A stretch of DNA of 52,455 bases from an uncultured Cellvibrionaceae bacterium (lineage in GTDB: Bacteria > Pseudomonadota > Gammaproteobacteria > Pseudomonadales > Cellvibrionaceae). Every line of letters starts with the position of its first letter. The stretch's first letter is position 1. The notes under the pieces are model-generated. The model had not been told where the DNA came from and ran no database searches. It saw only the letters and a program-made list of their open reading frames with translations. The position numbers and the translations under genes are program-made. Positions 1,231 through 31,745 of the stretch are shown here, in pieces. The stretch lies in the NCBI GenBank assembly GCA_964399955.1, contig CAYNST010000006.1:7103-59557 (forward strand), read 5' to 3'.

Positions 1231-2007
1231 TCAGCCCATGACTTCGGCGCTGTCATCGTCCGCTTGCATAAAGGCCCGGTCGCTGCGTGCCGACAGGCTG
1301 TGCACAGAGAACATCACACCAAAAAACACCAACCACACCGCCACAGAGATCATGATGGCCTGCGACAGGCCCATGAAAGCCCAAATGCCCAGGAAGGTGG
1401 CAACCAGCCCCAGCACCGAGATAGTCCCGGACGCCTTCACTTTGCCGCTTTTCAACACATCCGGGTCCTGGTCCAGTCTGGCGTAGTCCTTTACTTCGTC
1501 TATCAATTTTGCGCTGCCTCTCTCCAATGCGTAAACGGTGCCCGAGCGGCCGTGGCTGTCGTCGGCCAGCAGCTCTTTGCTCGCGTACCTGACAAAGGTG
1601 CTGTTCATGAAGGGAATGAGGGTGTCATCTATCCAGGACTCATCCAAACGCCAGGCTCGTTCATACGACTTGCCTTTGAGTTCAAATGCAATGGACGCCT
1701 GCCGGGTTTGCAGATCAAAGGTGGAGCGAAACTTCTGCAACTTGATGTCCAGCCCCATGGCGCGTCCCAGGCGGCCAAATGCGCGCATGAAGTCATGATT
1801 GGTGCGTAAAGCCTCAAGATTGACCTCAACGGTTTTGTCCTGCAGGTTTTTTTCTATCTGCTGCAGTACATCTGCCGGCCGCATGCTGCTGTCCAACTCA
1901 AAGTGCTCCGGCAGCAGAGACCGTTGAATGAGGACGGGCGTGACATCCTCCAGTGCGTCTCTTTCACTGGCTGCTACGGTTCGTTCTATCCACATTTGAT
2001 AAAGCAT
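1231..2007 (-). CDS. hypothetical protein with a soluble N-domain and two C-terminal TM helices
   Basis: Protein-like composition, unlike the overlapping Arg-rich plus-strand ORF 835..1809. The internal ATG at 2007 (MLYQMWIERT...) is preceded by AGGAG with an 8-nt spacer. The GTG at 2139 is an alternative start. C-terminus ISVLGLVATFLGIWAFMGLSQAIMISVAVWLVFFGVMF is hydrophobic. Confidence 0.5.
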   Translation of the reverse strand: MLYQMWIERTVAASERDALEDVTPVLIQRSLLPEHFELDSSMRPADVLQQIEKNLQDKTVEVNLEALRTNHDFMRAFGRLGRAMGLDIKLQKFRSTFDLQTRQASIAFELKGKSYERAWRLDESWIDDTLIPFMNSTFVRYASKELLADDSHGRSGTVYALERGSAKLIDEVKDYARLDQDPDVLKSGKVKASGTISVLGLVATFLGIWAFMGLSQAIMISVAVWLVFFGVMFSVHSLSARSDRAFMQADDDSAEVMG

Positions 2008-2539
2008 GTTGTCTGCTCCTGTGCTGTCGCTCCCGATCTGTGGGAACCTCATCCGGTACTGGAAGTTAAAAATGGGTTTGGCAAACCTGCAACCAGGGCG
2101 TGCGGTGTTGGTGAATGCAGGTTTAGGTTGATCAAACACCCGCCTTTTTGCCCCTCTGCGGTCATTTTGTCAACAACTTACGGGCCGATCGTGACGCAGT
2201 CGGTCAACTGCCAGTGAGGATTGCGCTGCGTGACACACCGGACTTGAGGCACGGTTGGCATTAGCCCGAGTCGGAGAAATGGCGTTTTGGGGCGCTGGGC
2301 CAGTGTCTGCAGCCCCAGTGACAGATTCCCGGCAGCCGCTGAATTTTGCCCGCTCTTCGGCTGGGCAAGCCCCAATTTATGTGAGGTACGTCACGTTTGA
2401 TGGCTGGCAGATGTGCAGCGGCTCTGCAGGCTGCGCCAGGGCCGGTTCCAACCCTGTCAGACTGGTCTACGCTTGCTTAGGTGGGGCCCCTGGGGCTCAC
2501 TTGAATGCAATGGGTTTGGTGGCTCGGAGGAGGTTGACC

Positions 2540-2797
2540 ATGGTCTACGGTTGCCCAAATTGTGGCAAACAGGTTTCCAAACAGATTCTTTTAAAGCAGT
2601 CGGTACGCTGCTGGCCCTGTGGCAAGCAGATTCATCTCCCAGAGAACGTGGCCGCCGGTTTGGCACTGACCAGTCTCGCTACCTTTGCAGTCACCTACCA
2701 CAGTGGCAGCTACTGGCTGGCGGCCGCAGGGCTGCTGTTTCAGCTGGGCGCCTGTTACCGGGTTGCCGGGCGTTACCTGCAGGTAAAAAGCAGGTGA
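2540..2797 (+). CDS. zinc-ribbon (CPNCG...CWPCG) membrane protein, about 85 aa
   Basis: GGAGG lies 7 nt upstream of the ATG at 2540. Two CxxC pairs form a Zn ribbon, followed by two hydrophobic helices. The upstream part of the listed ORF 2255..2797 lacks a ribosome-binding site and is low-complexity. Confidence 0.5.
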   Translation: MVYGCPNCGKQVSKQILLKQSVRCWPCGKQIHLPENVAAGLALTSLATFAVTYHSGSYWLAAAGLLFQLGACYRVAGRYLQVKSR

Positions 2798-2973
2798 GTT
2801 GCTAGCCCGTGTCCGGCGCGCCGGTCATGTTCTAAAGGCAGTAGCCCAGGCTGGGCTGTCACCTGAAGCTCCTGCGTTTGACCCTGCGGCTGTCAAACAC
2901 GCCGCAGCCGTCGCCGGCCCCTTCTCCGCGTGATAAAGTGCCGCCTTTCCGCGCCGAAGCAGACGAGTCTCCC

Positions 2974-3699
2974 ATGACCTATTGCCTTGCCATAAGAATG
3001 AATTCCGGGTTGGTGTTTGCCGGTGACACGCGCACCAACGCCGGCGTGGACCGGGTGGCCACCTATCGCAAGCTGTACACCTTTGGCAACGGCACCAGCC
3101 ACGCTTTGGTTCTGATGAGCTCCGGCAACCTGGCCACCACCCAGGCGTTGGTGGAGACGGTCAGCCGCTCGGTTGCCGATAGCAGTGGGCTGTTCAGTGA
3201 GAAATCGCTGTACGACTGCGCCCAGCGCGTGGGGCAGTTCCTGGTGGATATCATCCGCCGCGGGTCGGAGCAGTCCATCAACAAGGGCATCGACTTTGGC
3301 TCCAACATTATTCTGGGCGGGCAGATCAAGGGCGAGGCGCCGCGCCTGTTCCACATTTATCCCCAGGGCAATTTCATTGAAGCCAGTGTTGAAACACCGT
3401 TTCTGCAGATAGGTGAGGAAAAATACGGCAAGCCGATTCTGGACCGCATCATCAAACCGGATACCGCGATAGACCAGGCCTTGACCTGCGCGCTGCTGTC
3501 CATTGATTCCACCATGAAGAGCAATTTAACGGTGGATATGCCGCTGGACATATTGCTGTACCAAAATGACACGTTCGACCTGTCCCAGGCGCGCCGCATA
3601 GAGCGCGACGACCAGGACTTTCTGGCGTTGCGCAAATACTGGGGCGAAGGCCTGCACCGACTGATTCACGAGTTTCCACCGCTCAAGGTGCCGCAATGA
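2974..3699 (+). CDS. proteasome-type Ntn-hydrolase, Anbu-like (ancestral beta-subunit homologue)
   Basis: Starts MTYCLAIRMNSGLVFAGDTR: Thr directly after Met, GxxxD motif and about 240 aa, as in the Anbu/HslV/proteasome beta family. The stop overlaps the tlyA start (ATGA at 3696). Confidence 0.7.
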   Translation: MTYCLAIRMNSGLVFAGDTRTNAGVDRVATYRKLYTFGNGTSHALVLMSSGNLATTQALVETVSRSVADSSGLFSEKSLYDCAQRVGQFLVDIIRRGSEQSINKGIDFGSNIILGGQIKGEAPRLFHIYPQGNFIEASVETPFLQIGEEKYGKPILDRIIKPDTAIDQALTCALLSIDSTMKSNLTVDMPLDILLYQNDTFDLSQARRIERDDQDFLALRKYWGEGLHRLIHEFPPLKVPQ

Positions 3700-4484
3700 G
3701 CGAACGCCTGGACAAACTGCTGGTGGAACGCGGGTTTGCCGCCTCACGTACCCAGGCACAGCGCATGATTGCTGCGGGCTCTGTGTCTGGCAAGCTCAAG
3801 GGCTTGTGGCAGACGCTGGATAAACCGTCTGTGAAGCTGGACCTGGCCACCGAGCTGCGCGCAGCGCCCATTGCCGAGCACCAATACGTCTCCCGTGCGG
3901 GCCTGAAGCTGGCGGCTGCGTTGCAGCAGCTGTGTGAGCGCAATCTGCTGGCGGCTCCGGTGCAGAACTGTGCGGCGGGGGTCACGGCGCTGGATATTGG
4001 CCAGTCCACCGGTGGCTTTACCGACTGCCTGCTGCAGCATGGTGCAACGCATGTGTTGGGGGTTGACGTTGGGCACGGCCAGTTGGACAAGCGCCTGCAG
4101 GATCACCCGCACATTACTGCCTGGGAAGGGATCAACGCCCGCAATCTGCCGGTGGCGGAGCTCCTTGAGCAGGCCGAAGGCGGGTTTGACTGGGTGGTGA
4201 TGGATGTGTCGTTCATATCCCAGACGTTGATTTTGCCCCACGTTGCTGCCGTACTTAAAGCCGGCGGGCGCCTGATCAGCCTGGTCAAACCGCAGTTTGA
4301 GGTGGGGCCGCAGGGTGTGGGCAAGGGCGGGCTGGTCAAAAACCAACAGCTGCTCGACTGGACTGGAGAGCATATTCAGGGGCACCTGCAACAGCACGGC
4401 CTGCGCACACTGGCGTATTTTGAAAGCGCTATCCAAGGCAGTGACGGCAACCGCGAATTTTTTGCTGTCGCTGAAAAGCCTTGA
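3696..4484 (+). CDS. tlyA: TlyA family rRNA 2'-O-methyltransferase (S4 domain plus FtsJ-like methyltransferase)
   Basis: N-terminal S4-like RLDKLLVERGFAASRTQAQRMI, then VSRAGLKL and the SAM-binding motif ALDIGQSTGGFTDCLLQHGA, then DVSFISQ. Confidence 0.88.
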   Translation: MSERLDKLLVERGFAASRTQAQRMIAAGSVSGKLKGLWQTLDKPSVKLDLATELRAAPIAEHQYVSRAGLKLAAALQQLCERNLLAAPVQNCAAGVTALDIGQSTGGFTDCLLQHGATHVLGVDVGHGQLDKRLQDHPHITAWEGINARNLPVAELLEQAEGGFDWVVMDVSFISQTLILPHVAAVLKAGGRLISLVKPQFEVGPQGVGKGGLVKNQQLLDWTGEHIQGHLQQHGLRTLAYFESAIQGSDGNREFFAVAEKP

Positions 4485-4550
4485 TCACCACTTTGTTTGT
4501 ATGCACTTACTTCCGCCGAATCACCAACAAGCAAAGACTTAGGAGTGTCA

Positions 4551-4928
4551 ATGTCAGTCGCCAAATGGTTTTTTGTGCTCTCCGCGTTCAACGGCTTGCT
4601 GGCCGTGGCTTTGGGGGCCTTTGGCGCCCACGCCCTTAAAGCCAAGCTCACCGCCGCTATGTTGGGCGTGTGGCAGACGGCGGTGCAATACCAGTTTTAC
4701 CATCTACTGGCCCTGTTGCTGGTGGCCTTGCTCCTGCATCAGGGCTGGCGCTCTGTCTGGTTGGTGGCCAGTGGCTGGGCTTTTGTGGCCGGTCTGGTGC
4801 TGTTTTGCGGCAGCCTGTATTTATTGGCGCTGGGAGGGCCGCGCTGGCTGGGCCCCATCACTCCTCTGGGCGGGCTCACCTTCATGATCGGCTGGCTATG
4901 CCTGCTGGTCGCCGCGCTCAAGCTCTAG
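4551..4928 (+). CDS. DUF423 family small inner-membrane protein
   Basis: AGGAG lies 6 nt upstream of the ATG at 4551. Four TM helices with GAFGAHAL and YHLLALL motifs typical of DUF423/YgdD-like proteins. Confidence 0.7.
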   Translation: MSVAKWFFVLSAFNGLLAVALGAFGAHALKAKLTAAMLGVWQTAVQYQFYHLLALLLVALLLHQGWRSVWLVASGWAFVAGLVLFCGSLYLLALGGPRWLGPITPLGGLTFMIGWLCLLVAALKL

Positions 4929-4938
4929 CAGGCCCGGC

Positions 4939-5121
4939 ATGCTGGAATCCCACCGATGCTACTGCCCCTACTGCGGTGAAGTCATCGAACTGTTACTGGA
5001 CCTTTCCGTGCAAGCACAGACCTACGTGGAGGACTGTTTTGTTTGCTGCCGGCCAATGGTGGTTACGGTGGAAGTGGAGGGCGGCATTGCAGAGGTCAGA
5101 GTAGTCAGCGAGGACGAATAA
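4939..5121 (+). CDS. CPXCG-motif cysteine-rich mini-protein
   Basis: 60 aa, CYCPYCGE near the N-terminus and a later CFVCC, characteristic of the CPXCG zinc-ribbon family. Confidence 0.65.
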   Translation: MLESHRCYCPYCGEVIELLLDLSVQAQTYVEDCFVCCRPMVVTVEVEGGIAEVRVVSEDE

Positions 5122-5439
5122 CACGCTAGCTGTTAACTCTGGCCGCCGTCCACGCCAGACGGTAGCAAAAGCCACCGCAAGTGCATTGCCCTGCGTCCAG
5201 GCGGCTGCCAGCCCAACACCAAGGCATAGGCCGCACCGTTGCGCAAGGCGTAGCCAGTGCGCCTGTTACAGACTACTATTGAGCACTTGGCGCGGTCGCG
5301 GTACAGTAGGGAGCTGTGTGACCGGGTGCCAAATCACAGTTTTGGGCAGGAGCCACCACCTCTGTAGGCGACCTTTCAAACTTCTTACTACACTGGTCCC
5401 AACGCCGCATCAAACCCAGATACCGAACAGGATGTCCGT

Positions 5440-6093
5440 ATGTTTGCCCTTCTTGCCAGCGACGCAATAACGCCTTTCTTCCAGACTGTACTGTCCTTCC
5501 CCACGGTCATTTACAGCGGCTTGTTGGTGATTGTGCTGGTCTATTGGCTGAGCATGGCAATGGGCCTTGTGGATATGGACATGCTGGATGTAGACACACC
5601 CGATGCCGACGCAGGTGTGCTTGGTGGCCTGCTGCTGAAGCTGGGCCTTAATCATGTACCGGTAACGCTGGTAATCACCTTCATTGCTCTGATCGGCTGG
5701 GTGTTAAGCTTTTTTGCCAGTTTTTACCTTTTTCCGCTACTGTCGGCCCAGTTTGCCAAACTGCTGGTGGCGCTGCTGATCATGCCGGCCAGCGCCCTTG
5801 CCGCTGCCTGGGCCACCGCGTTCCTGATCCGCCCACTTCGGCCACTATTTCAAACCATGAACCGCGAAGTGCGGGTGGACCTGATAGGCCAAACCGCCAC
5901 TGTGCGCACAGGTGACGTCACCCCTGAGTTTGGTGAAGCCTGTATTGACGACGGCGGCGCCGGGTTGATCGTGCGGGTGCGTTCTTTTGATGGCCAAGGC
6001 TTCAAACGCGGTGACAAGGTGGTAATTTTAGAAAAAATAGACGGGCAAAGTGGCTATCGGGTGATGGCCGAAGCGGAATTTACAAAAGAATAA
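5440..6093 (+). CDS. NfeD-like membrane protein (YqiJ/DUF1449 type) with a C-terminal OB-fold
   Basis: N-terminal multi-TM region, then the soluble C-terminus GLIVRVRSFDGQGFKRGDKVVILEKIDGQSGYRVMAEAEF (NfeD-type beta barrel). Sits immediately upstream of a flotillin gene, as in the E. coli yqiJK pair. Confidence 0.75.
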   Translation: MFALLASDAITPFFQTVLSFPTVIYSGLLVIVLVYWLSMAMGLVDMDMLDVDTPDADAGVLGGLLLKLGLNHVPVTLVITFIALIGWVLSFFASFYLFPLLSAQFAKLLVALLIMPASALAAAWATAFLIRPLRPLFQTMNREVRVDLIGQTATVRTGDVTPEFGEACIDDGGAGLIVRVRSFDGQGFKRGDKVVILEKIDGQSGYRVMAEAEFTKE

Positions 6094-6118
6094 TTCATAA
6101 TCACACAAAGGAGTTTGT

Positions 6119-8053
6119 ATGGGCGAGTTGATGCCACAGCTGACGGTATTTGCAGTAGTCGTCGGTATTATCTTATTGACGCTGCTGGGTATACTTGCCG
6201 CCTTCAAGGCGTTTTATTTCAAGGTTGATCAAGGCACTGCGCTGATCAAAAACGACTTCAGTACCAAGCCCAAAGTGTTTTTTACCGGTGCCATGGTCTT
6301 GCCGGTGATACACAAAAAGGAGCTGATGCGCATTTCGCTGATCACCCTGGAGGTGGACCGGCGCGGCAAGGACGGCTTGATCTGTGCAGACAACATGCGC
6401 GCAGACATCACCGTCGCCTTCTATCTGCGGGTCAATGAAACGCCAGAAGATGTGTTGAAAGTTGCCAAATCTCTGGGTGCGGCCCGCGCCTCAGACCGCG
6501 ACGCGGTGTACGAGCTGTTCAATGCCAAGTTTTCCGAGGCATTGAAAACCGTGGGCAAGCAAATAGACTTTGTGAAGCTGTTTGAAGACCGCCAACACTT
6601 TCGCGACAAAATCATCCAGGTTATTGGCAATGACCTGAACGGTTACGTGCTTGAAGACGTTGCCATTGACTATCTGGAGCAAACCGCCAAATCTTCGCTG
6701 GACCCGCACAATATCCTCGACGCCCAGGGCATTCGCAAAATCACCGAGCTTACCGCAGCGCAGAACATTCAAACCAACAATTGGGAGCGCGACGAAGAGC
6801 TGGCCATTCGCAAAAAAAATGTGCAAACCGTGGAAGCCATGCTGGAGCTTGAGCGCCAGCAAAAAGACGCAGAAGCCCGGCAGAAGCGGGAGATAGCCAC
6901 CATCCAAGCCCGTGAAGAAGCCGAAACCAAACGCGTTCAGGAGGAGGAGCGCAAGCGCGCCGAGTCCGCCACCATTCAGGTGGACCAGGAGCTTAATGTA
7001 CTGCTGGAAAACCAGCAGCGGGAAATAGAAGTGGCCGGTCAGAACCGCCAGCGCGCCGTGGTCATCGAAAAAGAAAAGGTCACCCGCGCCCGCGACCTGG
7101 AAGTGGTTGCCCGTGAACGGGATGTGGAGCTGCAGCGCATTGAAGCCGAAAAAGCCGTGGAGATGGAGAAACGCGAAATAGCCAACGTCATTCGCGAGCG
7201 CATCACCGTAGATAAAACCGTGGCCGTGGAGGAAGAAAAGATCAAGGAAGTGCGGGAAGTCTCCGAGGCGGACCGCCGCAAGCAGATTCAGGTCATGGAA
7301 GCCGAAGCCCGCGCCGAAGAGCAAAAAGTCAAACAGGTCAAGGCGGCAGAGGCCGAAGAACTGTCCGCTCGCCACAAGGCAGTGGAGATCACCACCCTGG
7401 CGCAGGCGCGCCTGGACGCCTCCGCCAAAGAAGCCGATGCCAAGAAAAAAATGGCCGAGGGCACCCAGGCCGAACGCGCCGCCCCCGGTCTTGCGGATGC
7501 TCGTGTGTTGGAGGCCCGCGCGCAAGCACAGGAGAAAGAAGGTCTGGCTGAAGCGCGAGTCATCTCGGCCAAAGGCGGCGCAGACGCTGAAGTCATTGCC
7601 GCACGAGGGGACGCCGAAGCCCGAGCAGCCCGTGACCTGGGGCTGGCGGAAGCAGAAGTCACGCGGGAGAAATTCCGGGCGGAGGCCGACGGCCTGGTGG
7701 AGAAATTCACCGCCATGGGCAGCATGAGCAAAGACGCCCGCGCCCACGAGGAATTCCGCATGACTTTGGAGACGGCTTTGAAAGAGGCTTTGGCTTCTAT
7801 TGATGCAGGCAAGGAGATTGCCAAAGAAAACGCTGAGGTTTTGGCCACCGCGCTGGGCAAGGCCCATATTGACATCGTTGGCGGGGAGGCGCAGTTCTTT
7901 GATAACTTTGCCAAGTCCCTGTCCATCGGCAAGGCGGTTGACGGGCTGGCAGGAAAAAGCAGCACCATTGCCAACATCTTGCAAAACGTGCTGGCAATGA
8001 CCGGTGGCAACAACAACGCGTCCGACAAGGTCATCACCCCTGCGGACAAATAA
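6119..8053 (+). CDS. flotillin / SPFH (band 7) family protein, YqiK-like
   Basis: AAGGAG ribosome-binding site. N-terminal TM, SPFH domain, then a ~350-aa Glu/Ala/Arg/Lys-rich coiled coil (AEAEA repeats) typical of flotillins. Confidence 0.85.
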   Translation: MGELMPQLTVFAVVVGIILLTLLGILAAFKAFYFKVDQGTALIKNDFSTKPKVFFTGAMVLPVIHKKELMRISLITLEVDRRGKDGLICADNMRADITVAFYLRVNETPEDVLKVAKSLGAARASDRDAVYELFNAKFSEALKTVGKQIDFVKLFEDRQHFRDKIIQVIGNDLNGYVLEDVAIDYLEQTAKSSLDPHNILDAQGIRKITELTAAQNIQTNNWERDEELAIRKKNVQTVEAMLELERQQKDAEARQKREIATIQAREEAETKRVQEEERKRAESATIQVDQELNVLLENQQREIEVAGQNRQRAVVIEKEKVTRARDLEVVARERDVELQRIEAEKAVEMEKREIANVIRERITVDKTVAVEEEKIKEVREVSEADRRKQIQVMEAEARAEEQKVKQVKAAEAEELSARHKAVEITTLAQARLDASAKEADAKKKMAEGTQAERAAPGLADARVLEARAQAQEKEGLAEARVISAKGGADAEVIAARGDAEARAARDLGLAEAEVTREKFRAEADGLVEKFTAMGSMSKDARAHEEFRMTLETALKEALASIDAGKEIAKENAEVLATALGKAHIDIVGGEAQFFDNFAKSLSIGKAVDGLAGKSSTIANILQNVLAMTGGNNNASDKVITPADK

Positions 8054-8120
8054 ATTTTGGTTTTACCCGTAATTATTCAGCTCAAACCGTGACCTGAATA
8101 GTCACTTATACCATTTTGTT

Positions 8121-8150
8121 TGGCACTGCATGCATCAAGCCGCAGTGCCA
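8121..8150 (+). terminator. GC-rich hairpin after the flotillin gene (9-bp perfect stem tggcactgc/gcagtgcca, 12-nt loop)
   Basis: Perfect inverted repeat 68 nt after the stop codon. No clear U-tract, so intrinsic termination is uncertain. Confidence 0.35.
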
Positions 8151-8193
8151 TTACAAGCGCCGGGGTCCCGGCAAGGCTACTGTCGCTGTTTTC

Positions 8194-8212
8194 GCTCAGG
8201 CGTCGCCTGAGC
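8194..8212. promoter_or_regulatory. 19-bp palindrome gctcaggcg-t-cgcctgagc upstream of the DUF2059 gene
   Basis: Perfect 9-bp arms around a central T, 40 nt upstream of the start codon. Candidate operator or small hairpin. Confidence 0.25.
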
Positions 8213-8252
8213 CGAGTTCACGCAGGAGCACCCTCACCTACAAGGAGTCATC

Positions 8253-8750
8253 ATGAAATATTTAATCATCGCAGTACTGTCCTCTTTCATCGCCTTTGCT
8301 CAGGCCGACGATCAAAGCAAACACAAAGCCATCGACAAGCTCATGCAGATCACCAACGTCGAGTCCACCATTGATGGGCTTTACGAGCAAATGGAGGCGA
8401 TGATGCAGAGCATGGGCGACCAGATGGGCGTGGGGCCTGCCGAGCAGCCCATCCTGGACGAATATCACTCCAGCATGCGCATGATCATGCAAACGGAGAT
8501 GAGCTGGGAACAAATGAAGCAGCCGATGACTGCGCTCTACGCCAAGCATTTCTCCGAAGAAGAAATCAACGATATGATCGCCTTTTACCAGAGCGAGACC
8601 GGACGCAAAACCATCGAGAAAATGCCGGTGGTGATGCAGGAGTCCATGGCCATTTCGCAGCAACTGGTGCAAAACGCCCTGCCCAAAATTCAGCAGGTTA
8701 CCGAACAGATGCAAAATGACCTGGCAAAAGTCCGCGGGGAAAAACAATAA
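8253..8750 (+). CDS. DUF2059 family periplasmic protein
   Basis: AAGGAG ribosome-binding site, signal peptide MKYLIIAVLSSFIAFAQA, and the hallmark HFSEEEINDMIAFYQSETGRKTIEKMP. Confidence 0.8.
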   Translation: MKYLIIAVLSSFIAFAQADDQSKHKAIDKLMQITNVESTIDGLYEQMEAMMQSMGDQMGVGPAEQPILDEYHSSMRMIMQTEMSWEQMKQPMTALYAKHFSEEEINDMIAFYQSETGRKTIEKMPVVMQESMAISQQLVQNALPKIQQVTEQMQNDLAKVRGEKQ

Positions 8751-8763
8751 CAGCGGGTAACTT

Positions 8764-8800
8764 GTCGGCCTGCGTCCAAGTTTGCCGACAGGGGTTTTTG
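8764..8800 (+). terminator. probable intrinsic terminator (stem tgtcggc/gccgaca followed by GGGGTTTTTGG)
   Basis: Stem-loop plus T5 tract 14 nt after the DUF2059 stop. Confidence 0.45.
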
Positions 8801-8924
8801 GCCCAGGCAAAACTGGACGCGCACCGAACAGCGGCGCAATGAGCGGAATGGTTCTAACGCCTGTGGCAGTGCCACCGCTGTTCACCCCACCCCTCATAGC
8901 CAACTAAAAACCAAGGGAAATCGC

Positions 8925-11900
8925 ATGGCGGTGATTGATCCAGACAGCACTCAGGTTGACCAGGCCGTTGCCGAGGGCGGTGCCTATGAGGTTATCACCA
9001 AGCGCTTGACCGAGCAGGGCACTGCGCTCAGAGCCTGCGCCGCCGCCCTGAACCAGGCGCGGCAGCAGGAGTTTGGCAGCTCGGAGATGGCCGTGATTGC
9101 CCGGGTGCGGGTGCGCACCGAGAACAACTGCTCGCCCCGGGATATAGTGCAGGTGGGCGAGCACCTGCTGTTTGGCTACAACGTATTCATCGGGCTTAAA
9201 TCCGAAACAGAAGTGGCGGATGTTCTGGCGCTGTTCAAGTTGCAGGTGCAGGGCGACGAAACGGACATTTTGCCCGTGCCGCAAGCGGATACCTTTTTAG
9301 ACGAGCCCCAGTTCGTCAAGGATTTTCAGGAACTTTACCGCTACTACAAACAAACCCGTCTGCTGCAGTTGAGAGTAAAAGACGGCAAATTGCTGGCGGC
9401 ATTCCAGATTGGCGAGCGGCTCACGGACACCCGCGTGTTTCGCTGGAGCATTTCCGCCGACGGCAAGGTCATTCGCTACATCGACAACCGAGGCGAGCGG
9501 GATATTCAACTGCCATCCGCCTTTGATTTTGAATGGCATAAAACCAGTCGCGATCAGGTCGTCAACGGCAAACATCCGCATGTCAATATCCTTGACGAGC
9601 TGTTTGTTGAAACGGTAGGCGGAGATCTGACTGTCAAGGTAGAAAACAATACCGCCTCCGGCCGCGGTATTTACCATGAGCCGGTGGACGACGCCACTCA
9701 GTCCATTGACGACGCCGAATTCCATTACGCTGAAGTAGGCAGTCTGATTCTGTTGAAGATACTGCCTTACCGCGAAACCGCCTGGCGCTATCTGGTGTTC
9801 AACAAACTTACTCAGGAAGTGCGGCGCATAGACGCCATTGGCTCTTCCTGTGTGCAGCTGCCCGAGGATCACGGCATTGTCTTCCCCGGTGGTTATTACC
9901 TGCAGACCGGCCAGTACAAAACCTTTGATGAGTCCAGCGCCGAGATGCTGTTCAAGCGGGTCATCCGCTCGCCTAACGGCGAGGACGTACTTTACGTATT
10001 TTATGAGCCAACCAGCGGCACGGTAGGTCTGTTTGCCTACAACCTGATCAAAAAAAACCTGCAAAACCCGCTGTATGGTGACGGCTACGCCCTGGCGGAC
10101 GATGGCACGCTGGTTATTTTTGTGGCCCAGGAAGAACCCACCCGGGTGCACCCGATGCAGGTTTGGCGCACACCGTTCTGCAGCGATGAATTTGCCAGTC
10201 TGGAGCCGCCCAGGCAAAACTTTTTTGGCCGTATCGGCAATGCCGAGCTGGTGCGGGGAATCTCTGACCTGTACGCGGTGGGCCGCATAATCGACAATCA
10301 GTCGGTGACCCTGCGCCTCTACGAAGAATTGCAGCGCGTGGCGCTGAAGGTGTTTGACGATCACTATTGGATAGAGGCAGAAGAAACCGCCGATGCTCCC
10401 GGTTTATTAAGAACCATCGCTCAAACCGCTGAGCTGGCCATCGACGAATTTGAAAAAGTACAAAGCATCCGCCAGCAGTCGCAGCGTGCGCTGGACGCGG
10501 CCAGCACCGAGCAGGGCCTGCTGCTTGACAGTGTCCGCGCTGCCGGCTGGGATACGGCCGAGGAGTATGTACTGGCTCTTGACCGCATCCGCAACCAGCG
10601 CGGTCACCTGGCAACCATCAGACAATACCGCTACATCAATACCAGCAAAATTGACGCACTGGATGCTGTATTGCTGGAGGCCCAGCATCACCTGAGTGCG
10701 CGTACGCTGGAGTTTCTGTCTGACGAGCAGGCGCTCTTGCCCTATCTGGAAAAAATCGAGTACTTCAATCAGGCCATCGCCGCCACGGAGACGGTTGCAG
10801 AGCTTTTGCCTTTGAAGGAGGAAATACAGTTAACCGCCGGCGGCCTTGATCTGCTGTCAGAACTGTTGTCCACCTTGAAAGCGGGGGATGCCACCGAGCG
10901 CACCCGAATCATCGATGCCATCTCCGAAGTTTACGCCCGGCTCAATCAAAGCAAGGCGCAGGCCCAGCACCGGCAGAACCAAATGGGCTCGCGCGAAGCC
11001 GTGGCCCAGTTCTCTGCCCAGTTCAAATTGTTTTCCCAAAGCATCACTAACGCTTTGGGCCAGGCCAATACGCCCGAGGCCTGCGATGAGCAAATGTCAC
11101 GTTTGCTGATTCAGCTTGAGGAGCTGGAAGGCCAGTTTGCCGACCACGAACAATTCCTAAGCGACATAGTTACCAAACGCGAAGAAGTGTTTGACGTGTT
11201 TGAGGCGCACAAGCAGCGGCTGCTGGACGAGCGCGGTCGGCGGGCGCAGGCCATTTTTGACGCCGGGCAGCGGGTACTGGGCAGCATTGAGCGCCGCTCG
11301 CAAAAATTCATCGAGCCGGACCCGCTCAACACTTTTTTTGCCGCCGACCCTCTGGTGCTGAAGATCCGCGAGTTTGTGGAGCAATTGCACCAGTTGGACA
11401 ACAGCGTCAAGGCCGACGACTTGGATGCGCGCCTGAAAGGGCTGCGCGACCAAGCCTCCCGCGCGCTGCGAGACAAGCGCGAGCTGTTTGAAGAGGGCGG
11501 TGCGGTGGCCCGCCTGGGGCCGCGCCACCGCTTCAACGTCAACACCCAGGAGCTGGATCTTACCTTGCTGGCCCGCAACGGCCAGTTGGTTTATCACCTC
11601 ACCGGCACCCAATATTATCAACCGGTTGACGAGCCGGAGCTGGAACGGCTGAAACCCTTCTGGAGTGTTGCCCTGGCGTCCGAAAGCGCGGAGGTTTACC
11701 GCGCCGAGTTTCTGGCCGATGAAATACTGCACGCCGCCCGGGCGCAGCGCGACGGCCTGAGCCTGGACGGCTTGCACCAGGCCCTGTTGCAGGGCGCGCA
11801 ACTGGACAAACTGGTCCGCGATTTTGCTGCGCCGCGATATCAGGAGGGGTATGAAAAAGGCATTCACGACCACGATGCCGCGCTTATTCTGAAGGCGCTT

Positions 11901-14180
11901 CTGCCCGCGTTGCAGCAAGTGGACCTGCTGCGCTTTGAGCCGGCTGCCCGCGCTTTGGCGCAGGTGTTCTGGTGCGCAATCAGCGGCCCCGCAGCAGCAC
12001 CGTCCGGCAGTTGGCTGGAGCGGGCACAATCCGCTTTGGAGTTAAAGGGCATGTTTGGCGATGCTGCGGCGGCGGACGGCCTGGCCCAGGAGATAGACAC
12101 GACGCTACAGGTTTTTTTGGATCAACACCCGCTACCGGTGCAAGCGGCGGAGATACAGCAGGCGGCGGCCTATCTGGTGGAGGAGTTGGGCCGTGAGCAG
12201 CTGGAGTTTGTGAGCAGTCACTATGCGCAGGAGCTTGCGGATACGCTGGTCTCGTCTGTAGGCGCAACCCGCTGGCGGCGTTTGCAGGCGACGCTTGAGT
12301 CACTGGAGTCCTCACCCGCGCTCGCCTGGCAGCTCTGCAGCAACTGGCTGCAGGGACTGGTGCAGAACAAAGGCCTGCAGCAGCTTGCGCGCTACCTTCC
12401 CGAGGCGTGTGCCTTACTCACTACCGGGCCGCGTCTATCCCGCCGCGCAACAGAGGTGGACCTGGATCTTACTATCAGTGGACTGATGGGGCAGCACGCC
12501 ACGCTTGCGGATCAACAGTTGCGCATCTCCGTTGACGGCTTCCTGGCCCGCCTGCAACGCCACAGGCAGGAGTTTGTGCCGGCTTACAAACACTACCTGC
12601 AATTGCGCCACGAACTGCTTGAGCGCCAGCGCAGGGCGTTGAGGCTGCACGAGTTCAAGGCTCGCCCTCTCAGCTCCTTTGTGCGCAACCGGCTGATCAA
12701 CGAGGCCTATTTGCCCATCATTGGCGACAACTTCGCCAAGCAGATGGGCACGGCCGGTGAGACCAAGCGCTCGGACCTGATGGGACTGCTGATGCTGATC
12801 TCGCCGCCCGGCTACGGCAAAACCACGCTGATGGAATACGTCGCGCACCGCTTGGGCCTGATTTTCATGAAAATCAACTGCCCCTCGCTGGGCCACGAGG
12901 TGACCTCCCTCGACCCGGCCAAAGCGCCCAACAGCACGGCGCAACAGGAGTTGATCAAGCTGAACCTGGCGCTGGAGATGGGCGACAACGTGATGCTTTA
13001 CCTGGACGACATTCAGCACACGGATCCAGAGTTCCTGCAGAAGTTTATCTCACTGTGTGACGGCACCCGGCGCATAGAAGGCGTGTGGCAGGGGCAGAGT
13101 AAAACCTACGACCTGCGTGGCAGAAAGTTCTGCGTGGTCATGGCGGGCAACCCCTATACCGAGTCTGGCGCTGTATTCAAGATTCCGGACATGCTGGCCA
13201 ACCGTGCCGATATCTACAACCTGGGCGATATCCTGGGCGGCATGGAAGAGCCCTTTGCCTTGAGCTACATCGAAAACGGTCTCACCTCCAACGCCGTGCT
13301 GGCACCGCTGGCAACGCGGGACATTGAAGACGTCTACCGGTTTGTGAAAATGGCGCAGGGTGAATCTGTCGCCACCACGGATATGAGCCACGCTTACTCC
13401 AGTGCGGAGGCGAGTGAAATTGTCGGCGTTCTGCAAAAGCTGTTTGCCATTCGCGATGTGGTGCTCAAGGTCAACCAGCAGTATATTCAGTCCGCAGCTC
13501 AGGCGGACCGCTACCGCGTAGAGCCGCCCTTCCGCCTGCAGGGCAGCTACCGCAACATGAACAAGATGGCAGAGAAGGTGCAGGCGGTGATGAACGCGGC
13601 AGAGCTTGAGCAGTTAATTGCCGACCACTATGTGGGCGAAGCGCAGCTTCTGACCACCGGTGCGGAAGAAAACCTGCTGAAGCTGGGTGAGCTGCGCGGC
13701 AGCCTAAGCCAGCAGCAACAGGCGCGCTGGCAGCAAATTAAAGCCGATTTTTTACGCAACAAAGCCATGGGTGGGGACGAGGGCGATGCCGGCCAAAAAA
13801 TAGCCGCGCAGCTGACAGATCTGGTCGCGGGCCTGCAGCACCTTGCAACAAGTGCGGCCAGTTGGACGCAATCCAAAGACCGTACAGAACAGAATCAGGC
13901 CAGTATGCTCACGCAGTTGAAGCAGATTGTTGACGCCGCCCGGCCAGAGGTCAAGGTCATCAACCAGCCGGTTCCCGGGCTGGACACCTTGCTGCAGAAG
14001 CTCACCGACTCCATTGAAAACAGTCTGTACCCCATTGTGCGCAGCATGGACAAAAAGCTGGAGATAGACCTGCGCACCCATTACAAAATGAAAGATATCT
14101 CCCAGCAGTTGGCGGATATCGAACAAAAAATTCAACAGGAACTGGCCGAGCAACGTAGGACTCCACCTGAGGCAAACTGA
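8925..14180 (+). CDS. giant (1751 aa) protein with a C-terminal AAA_5 (MoxR/dynein-related) ATPase domain; function unknown
   Basis: Single uninterrupted ORF with an AAGGGA ribosome-binding site. Walker A LISPPGYGKTTL (~nt 12800), Walker B VMLYLDDIQH (~12996) and VVMAGNPYTESG...ANRADIY (~13140) match the AAA_5 pattern (hhhDEIN / hhh-NP). The N-terminal ~450 aa is non-repetitive. The central ~800 aa is Leu/Gln/Ala/Arg-rich and predicted helical. Confidence 0.85.
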   Translation: MAVIDPDSTQVDQAVAEGGAYEVITKRLTEQGTALRACAAALNQARQQEFGSSEMAVIARVRVRTENNCSPRDIVQVGEHLLFGYNVFIGLKSETEVADVLALFKLQVQGDETDILPVPQADTFLDEPQFVKDFQELYRYYKQTRLLQLRVKDGKLLAAFQIGERLTDTRVFRWSISADGKVIRYIDNRGERDIQLPSAFDFEWHKTSRDQVVNGKHPHVNILDELFVETVGGDLTVKVENNTASGRGIYHEPVDDATQSIDDAEFHYAEVGSLILLKILPYRETAWRYLVFNKLTQEVRRIDAIGSSCVQLPEDHGIVFPGGYYLQTGQYKTFDESSAEMLFKRVIRSPNGEDVLYVFYEPTSGTVGLFAYNLIKKNLQNPLYGDGYALADDGTLVIFVAQEEPTRVHPMQVWRTPFCSDEFASLEPPRQNFFGRIGNAELVRGISDLYAVGRIIDNQSVTLRLYEELQRVALKVFDDHYWIEAEETADAPGLLRTIAQTAELAIDEFEKVQSIRQQSQRALDAASTEQGLLLDSVRAAGWDTAEEYVLALDRIRNQRGHLATIRQYRYINTSKIDALDAVLLEAQHHLSARTLEFLSDEQALLPYLEKIEYFNQAIAATETVAELLPLKEEIQLTAGGLDLLSELLSTLKAGDATERTRIIDAISEVYARLNQSKAQAQHRQNQMGSREAVAQFSAQFKLFSQSITNALGQANTPEACDEQMSRLLIQLEELEGQFADHEQFLSDIVTKREEVFDVFEAHKQRLLDERGRRAQAIFDAGQRVLGSIERRSQKFIEPDPLNTFFAADPLVLKIREFVEQLHQLDNSVKADDLDARLKGLRDQASRALRDKRELFEEGGAVARLGPRHRFNVNTQELDLTLLARNGQLVYHLTGTQYYQPVDEPELERLKPFWSVALASESAEVYRAEFLADEILHAARAQRDGLSLDGLHQALLQGAQLDKLVRDFAAPRYQEGYEKGIHDHDAALILKALLPALQQVDLLRFEPAARALAQVFWCAISGPAAAPSGSWLERAQSALELKGMFGDAAAADGLAQEIDTTLQVFLDQHPLPVQAAEIQQAAAYLVEELGREQLEFVSSHYAQELADTLVSSVGATRWRRLQATLESLESSPALAWQLCSNWLQGLVQNKGLQQLARYLPEACALLTTGPRLSRRATEVDLDLTISGLMGQHATLADQQLRISVDGFLARLQRHRQEFVPAYKHYLQLRHELLERQRRALRLHEFKARPLSSFVRNRLINEAYLPIIGDNFAKQMGTAGETKRSDLMGLLMLISPPGYGKTTLMEYVAHRLGLIFMKINCPSLGHEVTSLDPAKAPNSTAQQELIKLNLALEMGDNVMLYLDDIQHTDPEFLQKFISLCDGTRRIEGVWQGQSKTYDLRGRKFCVVMAGNPYTESGAVFKIPDMLANRADIYNLGDILGGMEEPFALSYIENGLTSNAVLAPLATRDIEDVYRFVKMAQGESVATTDMSHAYSSAEASEIVGVLQKLFAIRDVVLKVNQQYIQSAAQADRYRVEPPFRLQGSYRNMNKMAEKVQAVMNAAELEQLIADHYVGEAQLLTTGAEENLLKLGELRGSLSQQQQARWQQIKADFLRNKAMGGDEGDAGQKIAAQLTDLVAGLQHLATSAASWTQSKDRTEQNQASMLTQLKQIVDAARPEVKVINQPVPGLDTLLQKLTDSIENSLYPIVRSMDKKLEIDLRTHYKMKDISQQLADIEQKIQQELAEQRRTPPEAN

Positions 14181-18287: not shown

Positions 18288-19721
18288 ATGTTCAAACCTG
18301 CTATGGATAATCCAGTTAAATTCAATCCTTGCGTACTGCCCCGCTTACGGGCCCGCGTCTATCTGGCGGTGCTGTTGACAGGCCTGATGGCCCTCTTCAG
18401 CGCGGACTTGATGGCACAGGCGCCCAGGGTGACCCCCGCCGACCTGCAGCACATGGATGACGAGCTACAAAAGCGGCTGGACACCTTTTACCGCGAGTGG
18501 CTCAAGAAGGCATCGGCGGAACAGAGGGGCAATCTGCAGACGGTAACAGCCGGTTTGACTGTGCATGAACCGGAACAAGCCCTGCGCCTGGGGTTGCAGC
18601 TGCGCGCCAACCTGGAGGCTTTGCATCAGGCGGCAGACGATGATCTGTATCGCCAGGCCCTGGCGCTGCTCTATGCCATCAATGATACGGCAACGGTCAG
18701 GCGCATCACCGACTTCCTCAACCAGCAGGGTAGCCCTGCGGCGCGGTCCAACAACTATATGCTGCTGGCGGGTTATTATTACGCGCGGCAAAACTGGGCG
18801 GGTGTGCGAGCCGCACTGCAGCGGGTGGACAGCAAATTGCTGCCGGCCGAGCAACAGGGCTATGCCGCACTGCTGCACGGCTACGCACTGCAGGCGTTGA
18901 AGCAGCATCGCGAAGCCGTGAGCTATTATCGCCACCTTCCGGAGGACTCGCCCTTTTTCGCCTACGCCAAGTTGAACGAAGGTACAGCTTATTTGCGCCA
19001 GGGCTGGTGGTCAGAGGCTTTTCTGGAGTTTGAGCAAGCCATCAAGAGCGCGCCCAAAGACAGCGAACTCAAAGATCGTGTGCTCGTCACCCTGGGCTTT
19101 GCGCAGATTCATCACGAATTCTACCGCCTTGCCCGGGCCACCCTGCGCAAGGTAAGCCTGTCCAGCCGGCACGCGCCCAAGGCTCAACTGGGTCTGGGCC
19201 TGGCCGCAACTCACCAGCAGGACTTGCGTCCGGCGCTTAACCTTTTTTTGCACCTGCTGGAAAGCAACAAAGTGGACGCCAGCGTTGATGAGGCCTACTT
19301 GCTGGCGGCCCACGTTTACGAAGAGCTGCAGCAAATGCCCCTGGCGGCAGAGGCTTATCGTCAAGCTATCGCCTTTTATCAGCGCCGCCTGGACGAAACC
19401 GACCGCGCCCGCGCACGTTTACAAGGCACCGGCCAGCCACTGGAGCCATTGCTTGCCGAACTGGAAGCCCAGTCAGAAGAATTCTACGCCACTGCGCAAC
19501 CCATTCCCGAATACCTGCTGGACAATCACCGGCGTTTGCAGGCAATGCAGAACTTGGCGCGAGAGGCGCAATTGAAGGTCACGCTGGGTGACTTGCTGCA
19601 GGGCACCGAGCAGCTACTGCGGTCGCTTGCGCTGGAGTCCATCGAGGTTCGGCAAAGCCTGTTGCACAGCTACATGAGTCAAGCCAAATACCGTCTGGCA
19701 ACCCTTTATGACAATGATTAA
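18288..19721 (+). CDS. secreted TPR-like repeat protein (477 aa)
   Basis: N-terminal hydrophobic segment RVYLAVLLTGLMALFSADLMAQAP, then helical-repeat/TPR-like composition (Ala/Leu/Tyr/Gln periodicity). Its stop overlaps the next gene's start. Confidence 0.55.
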   Translation: MFKPAMDNPVKFNPCVLPRLRARVYLAVLLTGLMALFSADLMAQAPRVTPADLQHMDDELQKRLDTFYREWLKKASAEQRGNLQTVTAGLTVHEPEQALRLGLQLRANLEALHQAADDDLYRQALALLYAINDTATVRRITDFLNQQGSPAARSNNYMLLAGYYYARQNWAGVRAALQRVDSKLLPAEQQGYAALLHGYALQALKQHREAVSYYRHLPEDSPFFAYAKLNEGTAYLRQGWWSEAFLEFEQAIKSAPKDSELKDRVLVTLGFAQIHHEFYRLARATLRKVSLSSRHAPKAQLGLGLAATHQQDLRPALNLFLHLLESNKVDASVDEAYLLAAHVYEELQQMPLAAEAYRQAIAFYQRRLDETDRARARLQGTGQPLEPLLAELEAQSEEFYATAQPIPEYLLDNHRRLQAMQNLAREAQLKVTLGDLLQGTEQLLRSLALESIEVRQSLLHSYMSQAKYRLATLYDND

Positions 19722-22458: not shown

Positions 22459-22469
22459 GAACCCATCCT

Positions 22470-23051
22470 GTGACTAAGTTGTTGCGCTGCTCGATTGCCG
22501 TAATCCTGCTGCTGGTTCAATTGACCGGCTGCGGAACCAGCCCGCACAAATCCGGCCAATACGACAGCCTGAACCTGTTAAGCAATACCGAGCGACAAAA
22601 CTACGAGCGGGCACTGGCGCTGCTGGCCGAGGACAGCGCCAGCAGTGCTGAAGGCCTGTTGTTGAACCTGAGCCAGTCGCGCCCCAGCGTGGCGGAGGTT
22701 TGGTTGAATCTGGCCTTGGCGCATTACCACCAGGCTGAATGGGAGCAGGCCCAGCAGGCACTTACTCAATTATTGACGCTGCGCGAAGCCACCCACCAGG
22801 GGCACAACCTGGCCGGGCTGGTGGCGGTGCAGCAAGGGGAGTTTGAACGCGCGCGCCAGCACTACCAGCGCGCCCTTACCCTGCAGCCCAGCTACACCAA
22901 CGCGCTTTTCAATATGGCGTTGCTGCAGGATGTGTACCTGCAGGACATTGAGCAGGCCATGAATTTTTACCAGCGCTATATTGCCCTGGCGCCAGACGAT
23001 GAAGAAACAAAAAACTGGGCCGACAACCTGCAATACAGTTTGCCCGAGTGA
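22470..23051 (+). CDS. small TPR lipoprotein (about 193 aa from the GTG start)
   Basis: The in-frame GTG at 22470 gives MTKLLRCSIAVILLLVQLTGC-GTS (lipobox LTGC). The upstream ATG at 22365 would overlap the previous gene by 94 nt. TPR motifs follow (AEVWLNLALAHYHQAEWEQA, YQRALTLQPSYTNALFNMALL). Confidence 0.55.
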   Translation: MTKLLRCSIAVILLLVQLTGCGTSPHKSGQYDSLNLLSNTERQNYERALALLAEDSASSAEGLLLNLSQSRPSVAEVWLNLALAHYHQAEWEQAQQALTQLLTLREATHQGHNLAGLVAVQQGEFERARQHYQRALTLQPSYTNALFNMALLQDVYLQDIEQAMNFYQRYIALAPDDEETKNWADNLQYSLPE

Positions 23052-30238: not shown

Positions 30239-31678
30239 TTACAAGACTCCCGTCTGCGTCAGTTCGGTAACCAGTTCCAGCTCAGTTACCGTTTGGTCTG
30301 TCTGGTAGTGGGGCACCAGGTGCACCACGCAGGCGTAGTGTCCGGGTTTGCCGGGGTGTTCGCGCACCTTGACTTGAGCCTCGCGCAAGGGGTAGCGCGC
30401 TTGAGCTTCCCAGTCCAAGTCGTCGCGCGCAGTAGTGTATTTAAACAGCCAGTCGCGCAGGTATTTTTCGCAGTCCAAAGCACTTAAAAACGAGCCGATT
30501 TTATCGCGAATCATCACTTTGATGTAGTGCGCAATGCGCGAAGCGCACAGGACATGCTGCATCATTGCCGCCAGCTTGGCGTCCAGGTTGGCGCGGGCGT
30601 TGGCCGAATGTTTGATCATGTGCACCGAGGAGTTGCTGTAGAAGGCCGCCCAGGGCGTGCCGTAGCACTGGCACAAAGGAATAAACCCCAGGTTGCTGAT
30701 GTCGCGCTCGATGGAGTCGGTAATCACCACATCGGTGGCCGGTTTATAGGCCGTCTCTGCCGGGTCGGTGGCAAATGCATCACTGGGCAGGTTGGTGACC
30801 AGCCCTCCGCCCACCTGATCACGCGGCACGCCGCGGATATGACCAAACCAGCCGACCGCAGCAAACTCCCGTATCAACAGCCCGCCAAAAGCGTAACAGG
30901 CGTTGCCCCAGAGGTAGCTGGAGCGGCGCGTTTTTTCGTAAAAAAATAAACCTTTGTAACTGCCGGGCTGTGTTCTGTAGGGCCTGCGCATCAGGGTGCG
31001 CGGCAGGGTCAGGCCCACAAAACGTGCGTCCGGTCGGGCGCGCAGGGCGCGCCAGCGCAGGTATTCGGTCTGCGCAAAGATGCTTTGCAGGTCGATGGGC
31101 AAACGCAGGTCGGCGAAGCGGTCCAAGCCGAACAATTCGCTCGACGCCCCGCTGATAAAAGGCGCAAAAGCGGCTGCGGCAATTTGCGACAGCCCTTCCA
31201 GTGCTGCCAGGTCGTCGTGGGGATGATTGGCCGAAATTTTATGGCTGATGGTGTAATCACCCAGCAGTGCGCCGTAGGGTTCTCCACCCGGTAAACCGTA
31301 TTCTTCGTTGTAGATTTTGTTGAACAGCTGACTTTGGTCAAATTCGAGTGAACGGCTCAAATCCTTGACCACTTCTGTCCAGGTTATGTCCAGCACCTTG
31401 AGCTTGATGTTCTTGCTGGCGTCGCTTTGCAGGGCCAAATACCAGAGCCCACGCCAGGAAGCTTCCAAAGCCTGGAACCGGGGGTGGTGAATAATGGCGT
31501 TCAACTGGTCGTTGATTTGATGATCGATGGCGCTGATCAGGTGCGCGACGGTGTTGCGCAGTTCATCCACACTTCTGCGAGACGCGTTGTCGGCCTGCTT
31601 GGATGGCAATGCAGTGGGTCCGGTGGCGGCGTGTTCTGCGTCAACGGGGGAGGAATTTTTGACGATGGCAACGTCCAT
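30239..31678 (-). CDS. tssC: T6SS sheath large-subunit paralogue (TssC-like, second copy)
   Basis: 479 aa. Shares blocks with the adjacent TssC (LEFDQSQLFNKIYNEEYGLPGGEPYGALLGDY; RFVGLTLPRTLMRRPY; C-terminal [14 protein letters not shown]) but is clearly divergent. Confidence 0.85.
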   Translation of the reverse strand: MDVAIVKNSSPVDAEHAATGPTALPSKQADNASRRSVDELRNTVAHLISAIDHQINDQLNAIIHHPRFQALEASWRGLWYLALQSDASKNIKLKVLDITWTEVVKDLSRSLEFDQSQLFNKIYNEEYGLPGGEPYGALLGDYTISHKISANHPHDDLAALEGLSQIAAAAFAPFISGASSELFGLDRFADLRLPIDLQSIFAQTEYLRWRALRARPDARFVGLTLPRTLMRRPYRTQPGSYKGLFFYEKTRRSSYLWGNACYAFGGLLIREFAAVGWFGHIRGVPRDQVGGGLVTNLPSDAFATDPAETAYKPATDVVITDSIERDISNLGFIPLCQCYGTPWAAFYSNSSVHMIKHSANARANLDAKLAAMMQHVLCASRIAHYIKVMIRDKIGSFLSALDCEKYLRDWLFKYTTARDDLDWEAQARYPLREAQVKVREHPGKPGHYACVVHLVPHYQTDQTVTELELVTELTQTGVL

Positions 31679-31745
31679 AGTTGGGCAAGGCTGAAGGTAG
31701 AATCCGTTCGAGAAATGCGCGCCCGCAGGGCGCGCATCCTGGCTT

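Follow-up and report, generated by a model that had tools for sequence, protein, structure and literature searches.

A 52,455-nucleotide stretch of contig CAYNST010000006.1, from an uncultured Cellvibrionaceae bacterium, was analysed over its whole length (hereafter the window; coordinates refer to it, those given to the nucleotide being on its + strand unless marked as minus). Near its beginning lie two closely joined genes: anbu (2974–3699), which encodes a 241-residue proteasome-like Ntn-hydrolase, and tlyA (3696–4484), which encodes a 262-residue TlyA-family rRNA (cytidine-2'-O)-methyltransferase with S4 and FtsJ/RrmJ folds. The product of the first gene is a bona fide Anbu of the Anbu-1 subtype, with a Met-Thr start and no propeptide, and the pairing with tlyA recurs in related members of the family. 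The locus is probably best understood as an ordinary Anbu-1 heading a two-gene anbu–tlyA unit that arose through a single relocation and whose co-expression has been passed on by descent. The Anbu family is well characterized structurally, while to our knowledge no substrate, activity or interactor has been established for it, and every functional hypothesis about it is built on its operon partners. A clade with an intact, active-site-conserved Anbu away from these partners is useful material, as is the clade from the Burkholderiales described below.

The anbu gene and the identity of its product

The encoded start of the anbu reading frame at ATG 2974 is MTYCLAIRMNSGLVFAGDTRTNAG and its opening residues are MTYCLAIRMNSGLVFAGDTRTNAGVDRVATYRK (MTYCLAIR...); the frame closes at TGA 3697–3699. 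A mechanical list of open reading frames (ORFs) places its upstream end at TTG 2878. We take ATG 2974 to be the true start, because 29 of the 30 retrieved homologues begin with MTYC (P0038, beginning two residues earlier, reads MTMTYC) and because the same codon was chosen independently in the gene call for a contig of 100% identity. The intergenic region upstream (2798–2973) is the presumed location of the promoter, and a σ70 consensus scan identified none there; over positions 2000–5300, a search for σ70 consensus promoters and terminators gave nothing above the expectation from shuffled sequence and no promoter on the + strand. An Rfam scan of the whole window returned zero matches, and around anbu–tlyA the analysis of repeats and composition revealed only short chance repeats, no GC anomaly and no mobile-element footprint.

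In Pfam, the 241-residue protein matches only the generic Proteasome family (PF00227, 1.2e-9), and its NCBIfam matches, to archaeal α and β subunits, are weak and far under the cutoff, results that taken by themselves would suit HslV, BPH or a true 20S β subunit as well as Anbu. Against these identities, a phmmer search of the PDB returned the Anbu proteins of Yersinia bercovieri (5NYW, 1e-77) and Pseudomonas aeruginosa (5LOX, 2e-68), a designed Anbu (5LOY, 9e-75) and the Hyphomicrobium chains 5NYJ (2e-64) and 5NYF (7e-64), and among all PDB sequences no non-Anbu chain, and so no HslV or BPH chain, was matched at E <= 0.01. The AlphaFold2 model, built from a 30-sequence alignment (pLDDT 90.4), displays the elongated C-terminal helix of full-length Anbu (residues 214–233). 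Its top 31 Foldseek matches in the PDB are all Anbu (TM-scores of 0.75–0.95); the best non-Anbu matches are 20S β subunits with a TM-score of ~0.65 and E-values weaker by at least eight orders of magnitude, and no BPH chain occurs among the top 50. The neighbours of anbu are a zinc-ribbon ORF and tlyA, and neither an hslU-like gene nor one for another AAA+ unfoldase adjoins it. HslV is thus ruled out by the PDB sequence matches and the lack of an adjacent hslU, and BPH by its absence from both the sequence matches and the top 50 fold matches; because the matches to Anbu in sequence and fold far exceed all others, the chance that the protein belongs to one of the other proteasome-like families is negligible, and the Anbu assignment made in a preliminary description of this DNA stands.

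Thr1, Asp17 and Lys32, defined as the catalytic residues of Anbu (PMC6376114), are invariant in an alignment of 21 clade and 11 outgroup sequences, as are T20, G50 and L52; the three catalytic residues also align with those of Y. bercovieri Anbu. The S1 pocket (T20, Y30, S48, L52, T55) is identical or conservatively substituted with respect to that of the P. aeruginosa Anbu-1 (T20, F30, T48, L52, S55), the pocket of Anbu-2 being basic (PMC5666114). Three residues are diagnostic of the clade (G71, E148 and P161), all of them away from the active site. More than 20 clade sequences, 66–82% identical, have intact, full-length ORFs, and their alignment contains 60 invariant columns, among them T1, D17 and K32. 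The protein is, judging from these alignments, probably catalytically competent, and the full conservation of its active site points to purifying selection. The preliminary description had also taken the threonine that follows the initiator methionine as a requirement of autocatalysis. The MTYC start is as described; the proposed mechanism does not hold, since Anbu lacks a propeptide and it is methionine aminopeptidase, not autocatalysis, that uncovers Thr1 (PMC5666114, PMC6376114).

TlyA and the anbu–tlyA junction

The tlyA product matches the Pfam families FtsJ (2.5e-34) and S4 (7.7e-7). Its scores against TIGR00478 (155.0 bits, cutoff 185.8) and NF049952 (146.8 bits, cutoff 250) are both under the NCBIfam cutoffs, and these are nonetheless by far its best-scoring families; orthologues in related genera are labelled 'TlyA family RNA methyltransferase' in RefSeq. 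In the PDB, it matches 3HP7 (1.5e-38) and the TlyA of Mycobacterium tuberculosis (7S0S, 1.9e-34), with whose motifs the segments GLKL, MDVSFIS, LVKPQFE and GNREF align; these we take to hold the catalytic K-D-K-E positions of RrmJ/TlyA enzymes. Type II TlyA enzymes carry Arg3/Arg4 at the N-terminus and an additional helix at the C-terminus, and display dual specificity for 16S and 23S rRNA (PMC9168844). In the present protein, the N-terminus reads MSER, with R4 aligned to R6 of the M. tuberculosis enzyme and without the Arg3/Arg4 of type II, and past the last aligned position the chain runs on for five residues, and that of M. tuberculosis TlyA for 27. Having neither Arg3/Arg4 nor the C-terminal helix, the enzyme is therefore type-I-like, and its predicted methylation target is C1920 of 23S rRNA only.

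Many TlyA proteins of the clade carry an insertion of ~10 residues after GLKL, between the S4 linker and the S-adenosylmethionine-binding GxSTGG, which is missing in group B and in the outgroup genera. A relation of this insertion to Anbu linkage was considered and rejected by eye: the genes of group B are linked without it, and it is present in the unlinked loci L089 and L090.

The overlap of the anbu stop and tlyA start codons, which the preliminary description had reported, is read as ATGA at 3696–3699. Five nucleotides before the tlyA ATG, inside the 3' end of anbu, lies the Shine–Dalgarno-like AAGGTG (3685–3690), which may serve tlyA initiation. Four-nucleotide ATGA overlaps are the commonest type between co-directional bacterial genes, so that this one is by itself unexceptional; it is the repeated occurrence of the pair in relatives that goes beyond chance. 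A gene for a DUF423 membrane protein (4551–4928; Pfam DUF423, 1e-29, and gene call) begins 66 nt past tlyA, preceded by TAGGAG, and is possibly part of the same transcription unit as tlyA. It is followed by a gene for a 60-residue cysteine-rich CPXCG zinc-ribbon protein (4939–5121; PF14255, 2.9e-17), into which the anbu–tlyA unit possibly also continues.

Conservation and origin of the pair

The anbu–tlyA pair occurs in 12 independent Cellvibrionaceae loci, where the junction measures −4 to +16 nt and at least four flanking contexts are seen. A group of nine species representatives in this family comprises Saccharophagus sp. K07, Marinagarivorans, Thalassocella and metagenome-assembled genomes (MAGs); in eight of the nine tlyA lies 0–16 nt 3' of anbu, and the same arrangement is found in three more metagenomic loci (L091, L092 and L093, with gaps of 15, 5 and 3 nt); seven additional pairs of Anbu and TlyA matches were seen on contigs of equal size. 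The flanking order is glmU-glmS-response regulator-anbu-tlyA-chorismate-lyase-like-JetABC in context A, glmS-4HBT-response regulator-HisK(−)-anbu-tlyA-Zip(−)-JetABC in context A' and 7TMR-DISM/GGDEF-anbu-tlyA in context B, and the flanks of the window itself constitute the fourth; the only genes common to all are anbu and tlyA. A conserved anbu–tlyA operon is hence very likely to be real, and the check on linkage in relatives that the preliminary description had proposed places its conservation within one Cellvibrionaceae clade.

Several of these loci display features of their own. In contexts A and A' (L003, L006, L091, L092 and L093), the Wadjet anti-plasmid defence genes JetA-JetB-JetC lie 1–3 kb downstream of the pair; they are not present in the window. 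The 5.1 kb contig JBQGED010000240.1 (L004), from a MAG labelled Sphingobacterium griseoflavum, carries glmS-response regulator-anbu-tlyA with a response regulator 88% identical to that of Saccharophagus sp. K07, and is probably a mis-binned Cellvibrionaceae contig. At 9186–11446 of the Marinagarivorans sp. UBA5868 locus (L005), each of glmS, the response regulator gene and tlyA falls into two frames, for which assembly frameshifts are a likelier explanation than pseudogenes.

In a neighbour-joining (NJ) tree, the tlyA-linked Anbu proteins form one clade, with Sessilibacter/Halioxenophilus as its sister; Microbulbifer displays the canonical Anbu operon order. TlyA itself is widespread in the Cellvibrionales and Oceanospirillales at ~50–55% identity, and in Agarilytica, Gilvimarinus and Marinimicrobium its gene lies in or near a glmS...uvrD neighbourhood without anbu. 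It follows that tlyA was there first and that anbu was placed before it once, so that the linkage is of single origin. The attachment of tlyA to a preceding gene is not peculiar to anbu: in Marinimicrobium, it and an unrelated YdjM gene overlap by GTGA (4 nt), and in Gilvimarinus, it follows an unrelated 430-residue gene after 13 nt.

Three related lineages show a broken linkage. In L007, the ninth species representative, anbu is followed by 196 nt of non-tlyA sequence before the contig ends. The TlyA proteins of L089 and L090 fall inside the Anbu-linked TlyA clade and have no Anbu upstream, and no anbu remnant was found 5' of tlyA in either locus even at E <= 10; L090 retains the tlyA-DUF423-CPXCG order of the window with anbu absent.

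Anbu and its usual partner genes

The Anbu proteins are reported to lie 'often' in an operon with their partners, and where they are separated the three genes have been predicted to belong to the same regulon (Valas & Bourne, 2008; PMC3235984); Fuchs et al. (2017; PMC5666114) state that Anbu 'frequently co-occurs' with the partner genes, and Piasecka et al. (2018; PMC6376114) describe the association as 'predominantly' observed. Neither peptidase activity nor an interaction with the operon proteins was detected by these three groups (PMC3235984, PMC5666114, PMC6376114).

A scan of one genome per species yielded 80 Anbu loci, around which the partners and tlyA were sought by tblastn within ±10 kb. 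The full adjacent set of ATP-grasp, Alpha-E and transglutaminase genes was found in 46 of the 80, and partial or rearranged sets in four; in 21, of which 13 have full flanks, the available DNA contained no partner gene, and the remaining nine are those of the Cellvibrionaceae group, 66–73% identical to the query. Adjacent partners are therefore missing in 30 of the 80 species sampled, and the view, taken in the preliminary description, that Anbu is normally embedded in a four-gene operon is overstated. No tlyA was found within ±10 kb of the ~70 other Anbu loci. The positional separation of Anbu from its partners was thus already known, while its pairing with tlyA appears to be undescribed; no paper mentioning both 'Anbu' and 'TlyA' was found among those searched.

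No ATP-grasp, Alpha-E or transglutaminase gene was identified in the 52 kb window by Pfam scans of the large ORFs, and tblastn with Pfam-verified Yersinia sequences of the three proteins gave no match there at E <= 1e-5, in agreement with what had been noted earlier for the immediate surroundings of the gene. The same genes are missing within ±10 kb of anbu in the 11 tlyA-linked relatives. The designation 'orphan' originally given to this Anbu is accordingly valid for these distances and extends no further. Three ORFs of 444, 332 and 1178 residues at 37–43 kb, which by size resemble the partners, proved to be TssK, TssL and TssM of a type VI secretion system (T6SS).

A further group without ATP-grasp, Alpha-E or transglutaminase in the available flanks is an Anbu clade from the Burkholderiales (Roseateles/Pelomonas and relatives; L035, L046, L048–L050, L052, L053, L060, L065, L069, L071, L074 and L078–L080). 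Other Roseateles species carry the canonical Anbu operon (L033, L044 and L045), and the unlinked proteins may represent a second, paralogous unlinked lineage. Conserved neighbours were considered for them and rejected, the surroundings displaying only ordinary synteny with opposite-strand genes. A partial operon was seen in an Oleiphilaceae MAG (L051, ~4967–6544), where a transglutaminase gene lies directly 5' of anbu with no ATP-grasp or Alpha-E gene in the 5 kb of upstream sequence available.

Other features of the window

Upstream of anbu lie ORFs without a family match and an 85-residue zinc-ribbon/transmembrane ORF. The downstream order is DUF423, CPXCG, membrane and coiled-coil proteins, DUF2059, a 1751-residue DUF3686/AAA protein, a rhomboid protein, a T6SS and ExbB-ExbD-ExbD-TonB. 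The genes at 5440–14180 are co-directional and encode a 217-residue membrane protein, a 644-residue protein with a transmembrane segment and a long coiled coil, the DUF2059 protein and the 1751-residue DUF3686/DUF7902/AAA protein; the 644-residue coiled-coil protein resembles SPFH/flotillin proteins by eye and has no Pfam match.

The T6SS cluster, which is complete, occupies 15.3–47.4 kb. Directly 3' of VgrG, three consecutive genes (18288–23051) encode TPR-repeat proteins of 477, 916 and 228 residues, which could be T6SS adaptors or effector-related. On the minus strand, at 30239–33239, tandem TssC/VipB sheath paralogues of 479 and 497 residues, each with VipB and VipB_2 domains, adjoin a single TssB. 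At 44820–47390, a T6SS-associated PpkA-like Ser/Thr kinase carries a C-terminal FGE-sulfatase (formylglycine-generating-enzyme-like) domain. The cluster is otherwise standard, with Hcp, VgrG, ClpV, TssA, TssE–G, TssJ–M, TagF, Fha, PP2C and a Ser/Thr kinase.

Interpretation of the anbu–tlyA pair

If the locus is an ordinary Anbu-1 gene placed before tlyA by gene-order history, the following course of events may be envisaged. In one Cellvibrionaceae ancestor, anbu would have been separated from its ATP-grasp, Alpha-E and transglutaminase neighbours and would have landed directly 5' of a pre-existing tlyA in the glmS–tlyA neighbourhood, the two genes having thereafter been passed on together through several rearrangements. 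As for the products, methionine aminopeptidase would strip the initiator methionine and free Thr1, which with Asp17 and Lys32 would form a proteasome-type active site; by homology to the solved structures, Anbu would assemble as an open-ring or helical dodecamer. Ribosomes ending at the anbu TGA would reinitiate at the overlapping ATG, aided by AAGGTG, which would tie the synthesis of TlyA to that of Anbu, and TlyA would act as the lineage's ordinary enzyme, 2'-O-methylating rRNA. Since tlyA would habitually be the promoter-less last gene of whichever operon precedes it, any such pair would be hard to separate. The link between the two genes is then probably incidental, a matter of gene-order history and operon inertia and not of mechanism, because it has a single origin, is broken in three lineages, has no counterpart near ~70 other Anbu genes and is matched by equally tight couplings of tlyA to unrelated genes, and because the catalytic and pocket residues show no change specific to the clade. 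From the same evidence, Anbu and TlyA probably lack a functional link.

Some observations weigh against this interpretation. The pair has survived at least three rearrangements at genus-level divergence (66–82% identity for Anbu and 47–66% for TlyA) with a junction of at most 16 nt, a pattern that selection for co-expression would likewise produce. The co-transcription and translational coupling of anbu and tlyA are themselves deductions from the arrangement of the genes. The secondary loss of anbu in L089 and L090 is a tentative proposal, because the NJ trees carry no support values, and the absence of the Anbu partners applies to the 52 kb window and to ±10 kb in the relatives only.

The tightness of the junction is also what would be expected if Anbu and TlyA formed a functional module kept by selection, in which Anbu acted on TlyA, on a ribosomal protein or on nascent or stalled products, or in which its synthesis were matched stoichiometrically to rRNA methylation. 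The pair is indeed all that is conserved over the 12 loci and their at least four contexts, its junction varying between −4 and +16 nt, the fully conserved active site speaks for purifying selection and no member has partner genes within ±10 kb. Such a module is nevertheless unlikely, given that the linkage has a single evolutionary origin, has been broken in L007, L089 and L090 and is not seen near Anbu in ~70 other species, that tlyA is coupled as tightly to unrelated genes in sister genera, that the three diagnostic residues of the clade lie elsewhere than at the catalytic and S1-pocket positions, which are without clade-specific change, and that no paper was found linking the two proteins. 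Its more specific form, in which Anbu was freed from ATP-grasp, Alpha-E and transglutaminase and recruited with TlyA to a ribosome-related role, for instance in turning over TlyA, a ribosomal protein or stalled translation products, is decidedly improbable; if true, it would open a first way into the physiology of these proteases, a family for which no substrate has yet been reported.

A different possibility concerns the partners and not tlyA. Anbu may be an orphan in position only, with its partners elsewhere in the genome and acting in trans as one regulon, as proposed for separated Anbu proteins by Valas & Bourne (PMC3235984), in which case the adjacency of tlyA would be irrelevant. The adjacent partners of the sister clade and the unchanged active site and Anbu-1 S1 pocket agree with this explanation, to which we give a substantial chance, somewhat short of even. 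It is opposed by the lack of any partner gene in 52 kb of contig or within ±10 kb in 11 relatives, and by a search with the Sessilibacter ATP-grasp, in which Saccharophagus sp. K07, Marinagarivorans and Thalassocella were not named among the best 120 matches (all >= 73% identical), a weak negative given that most of these entries are nameless. That anbu is instead a decaying, functionless relic of a lost Anbu operon would fit the missing partners nearby and the apparent loss of the gene in L089 and L090; with intact ORFs at 66–82% identity in more than 20 clade sequences and 60 invariant columns, this is highly improbable.

The incidental pairing of an ordinary Anbu-1 with tlyA thus remains the preferred explanation. 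The pairing offers a hypothesis that is cheap to test, and the evidence suggests that it reflects gene-order history. The locus is chiefly valuable as a natural setting in which to ask whether Anbu works without its putative tagging partners: if these are truly absent genome-wide, the putative tagging system is not needed for Anbu to work, and no systems would be cleaner for a search for its substrate than the organisms concerned.

Comparison with known systems

The solved Anbu-1 proteins of Y. bercovieri (5NYW), P. aeruginosa (5LOX) and Hyphomicrobium sp. MC1 (5NYJ/5NYF) are ~45–52% identical to the present protein over the full length and have its fold in common (TM-scores of 0.86–0.95), including the long C-terminal helix, Thr1/Asp17/Lys32 and the absence of a propeptide. 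In contrast to them, anbu here heads an operon with tlyA, without adjoining ATP-grasp, Alpha-E and transglutaminase genes, and its product differs in the clade substitutions G71, E148 and P161.

The closest outgroup in the tree consists of the Anbu proteins of Sessilibacter corallicola and Halioxenophilus sp., which belong to the same order (Cellvibrionales) and are 53–56% identical. Their genes are located at the 5' edge of a cluster in which, after ~330 nt, CP_ATPgrasp, Alpha-E and a large transglutaminase-DUF2126 gene follow, and, unlike the present locus, they have no tlyA nearby. The unlinked Anbu of the Roseateles/Pelomonas clade resembles that of the window in having no partner within 10 kb and a retained active site; it differs in the absence of tlyA, its neighbours, on the opposite strand, being nadC-like and FAH-family genes in ordinary vertical synteny.

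With type I TlyA enzymes, such as Cj0588 of Campylobacter jejuni, the methyltransferase shares the N-terminal S4 domain, the class I FtsJ-like domain and the K-D-K-E positions. It departs from the known TlyA families in its scores under the NCBIfam cutoffs and in the insertion of ~10 residues after GLKL, and from the type II enzyme of M. tuberculosis (7S0S) in having neither the C-terminal helix nor Arg3/Arg4.

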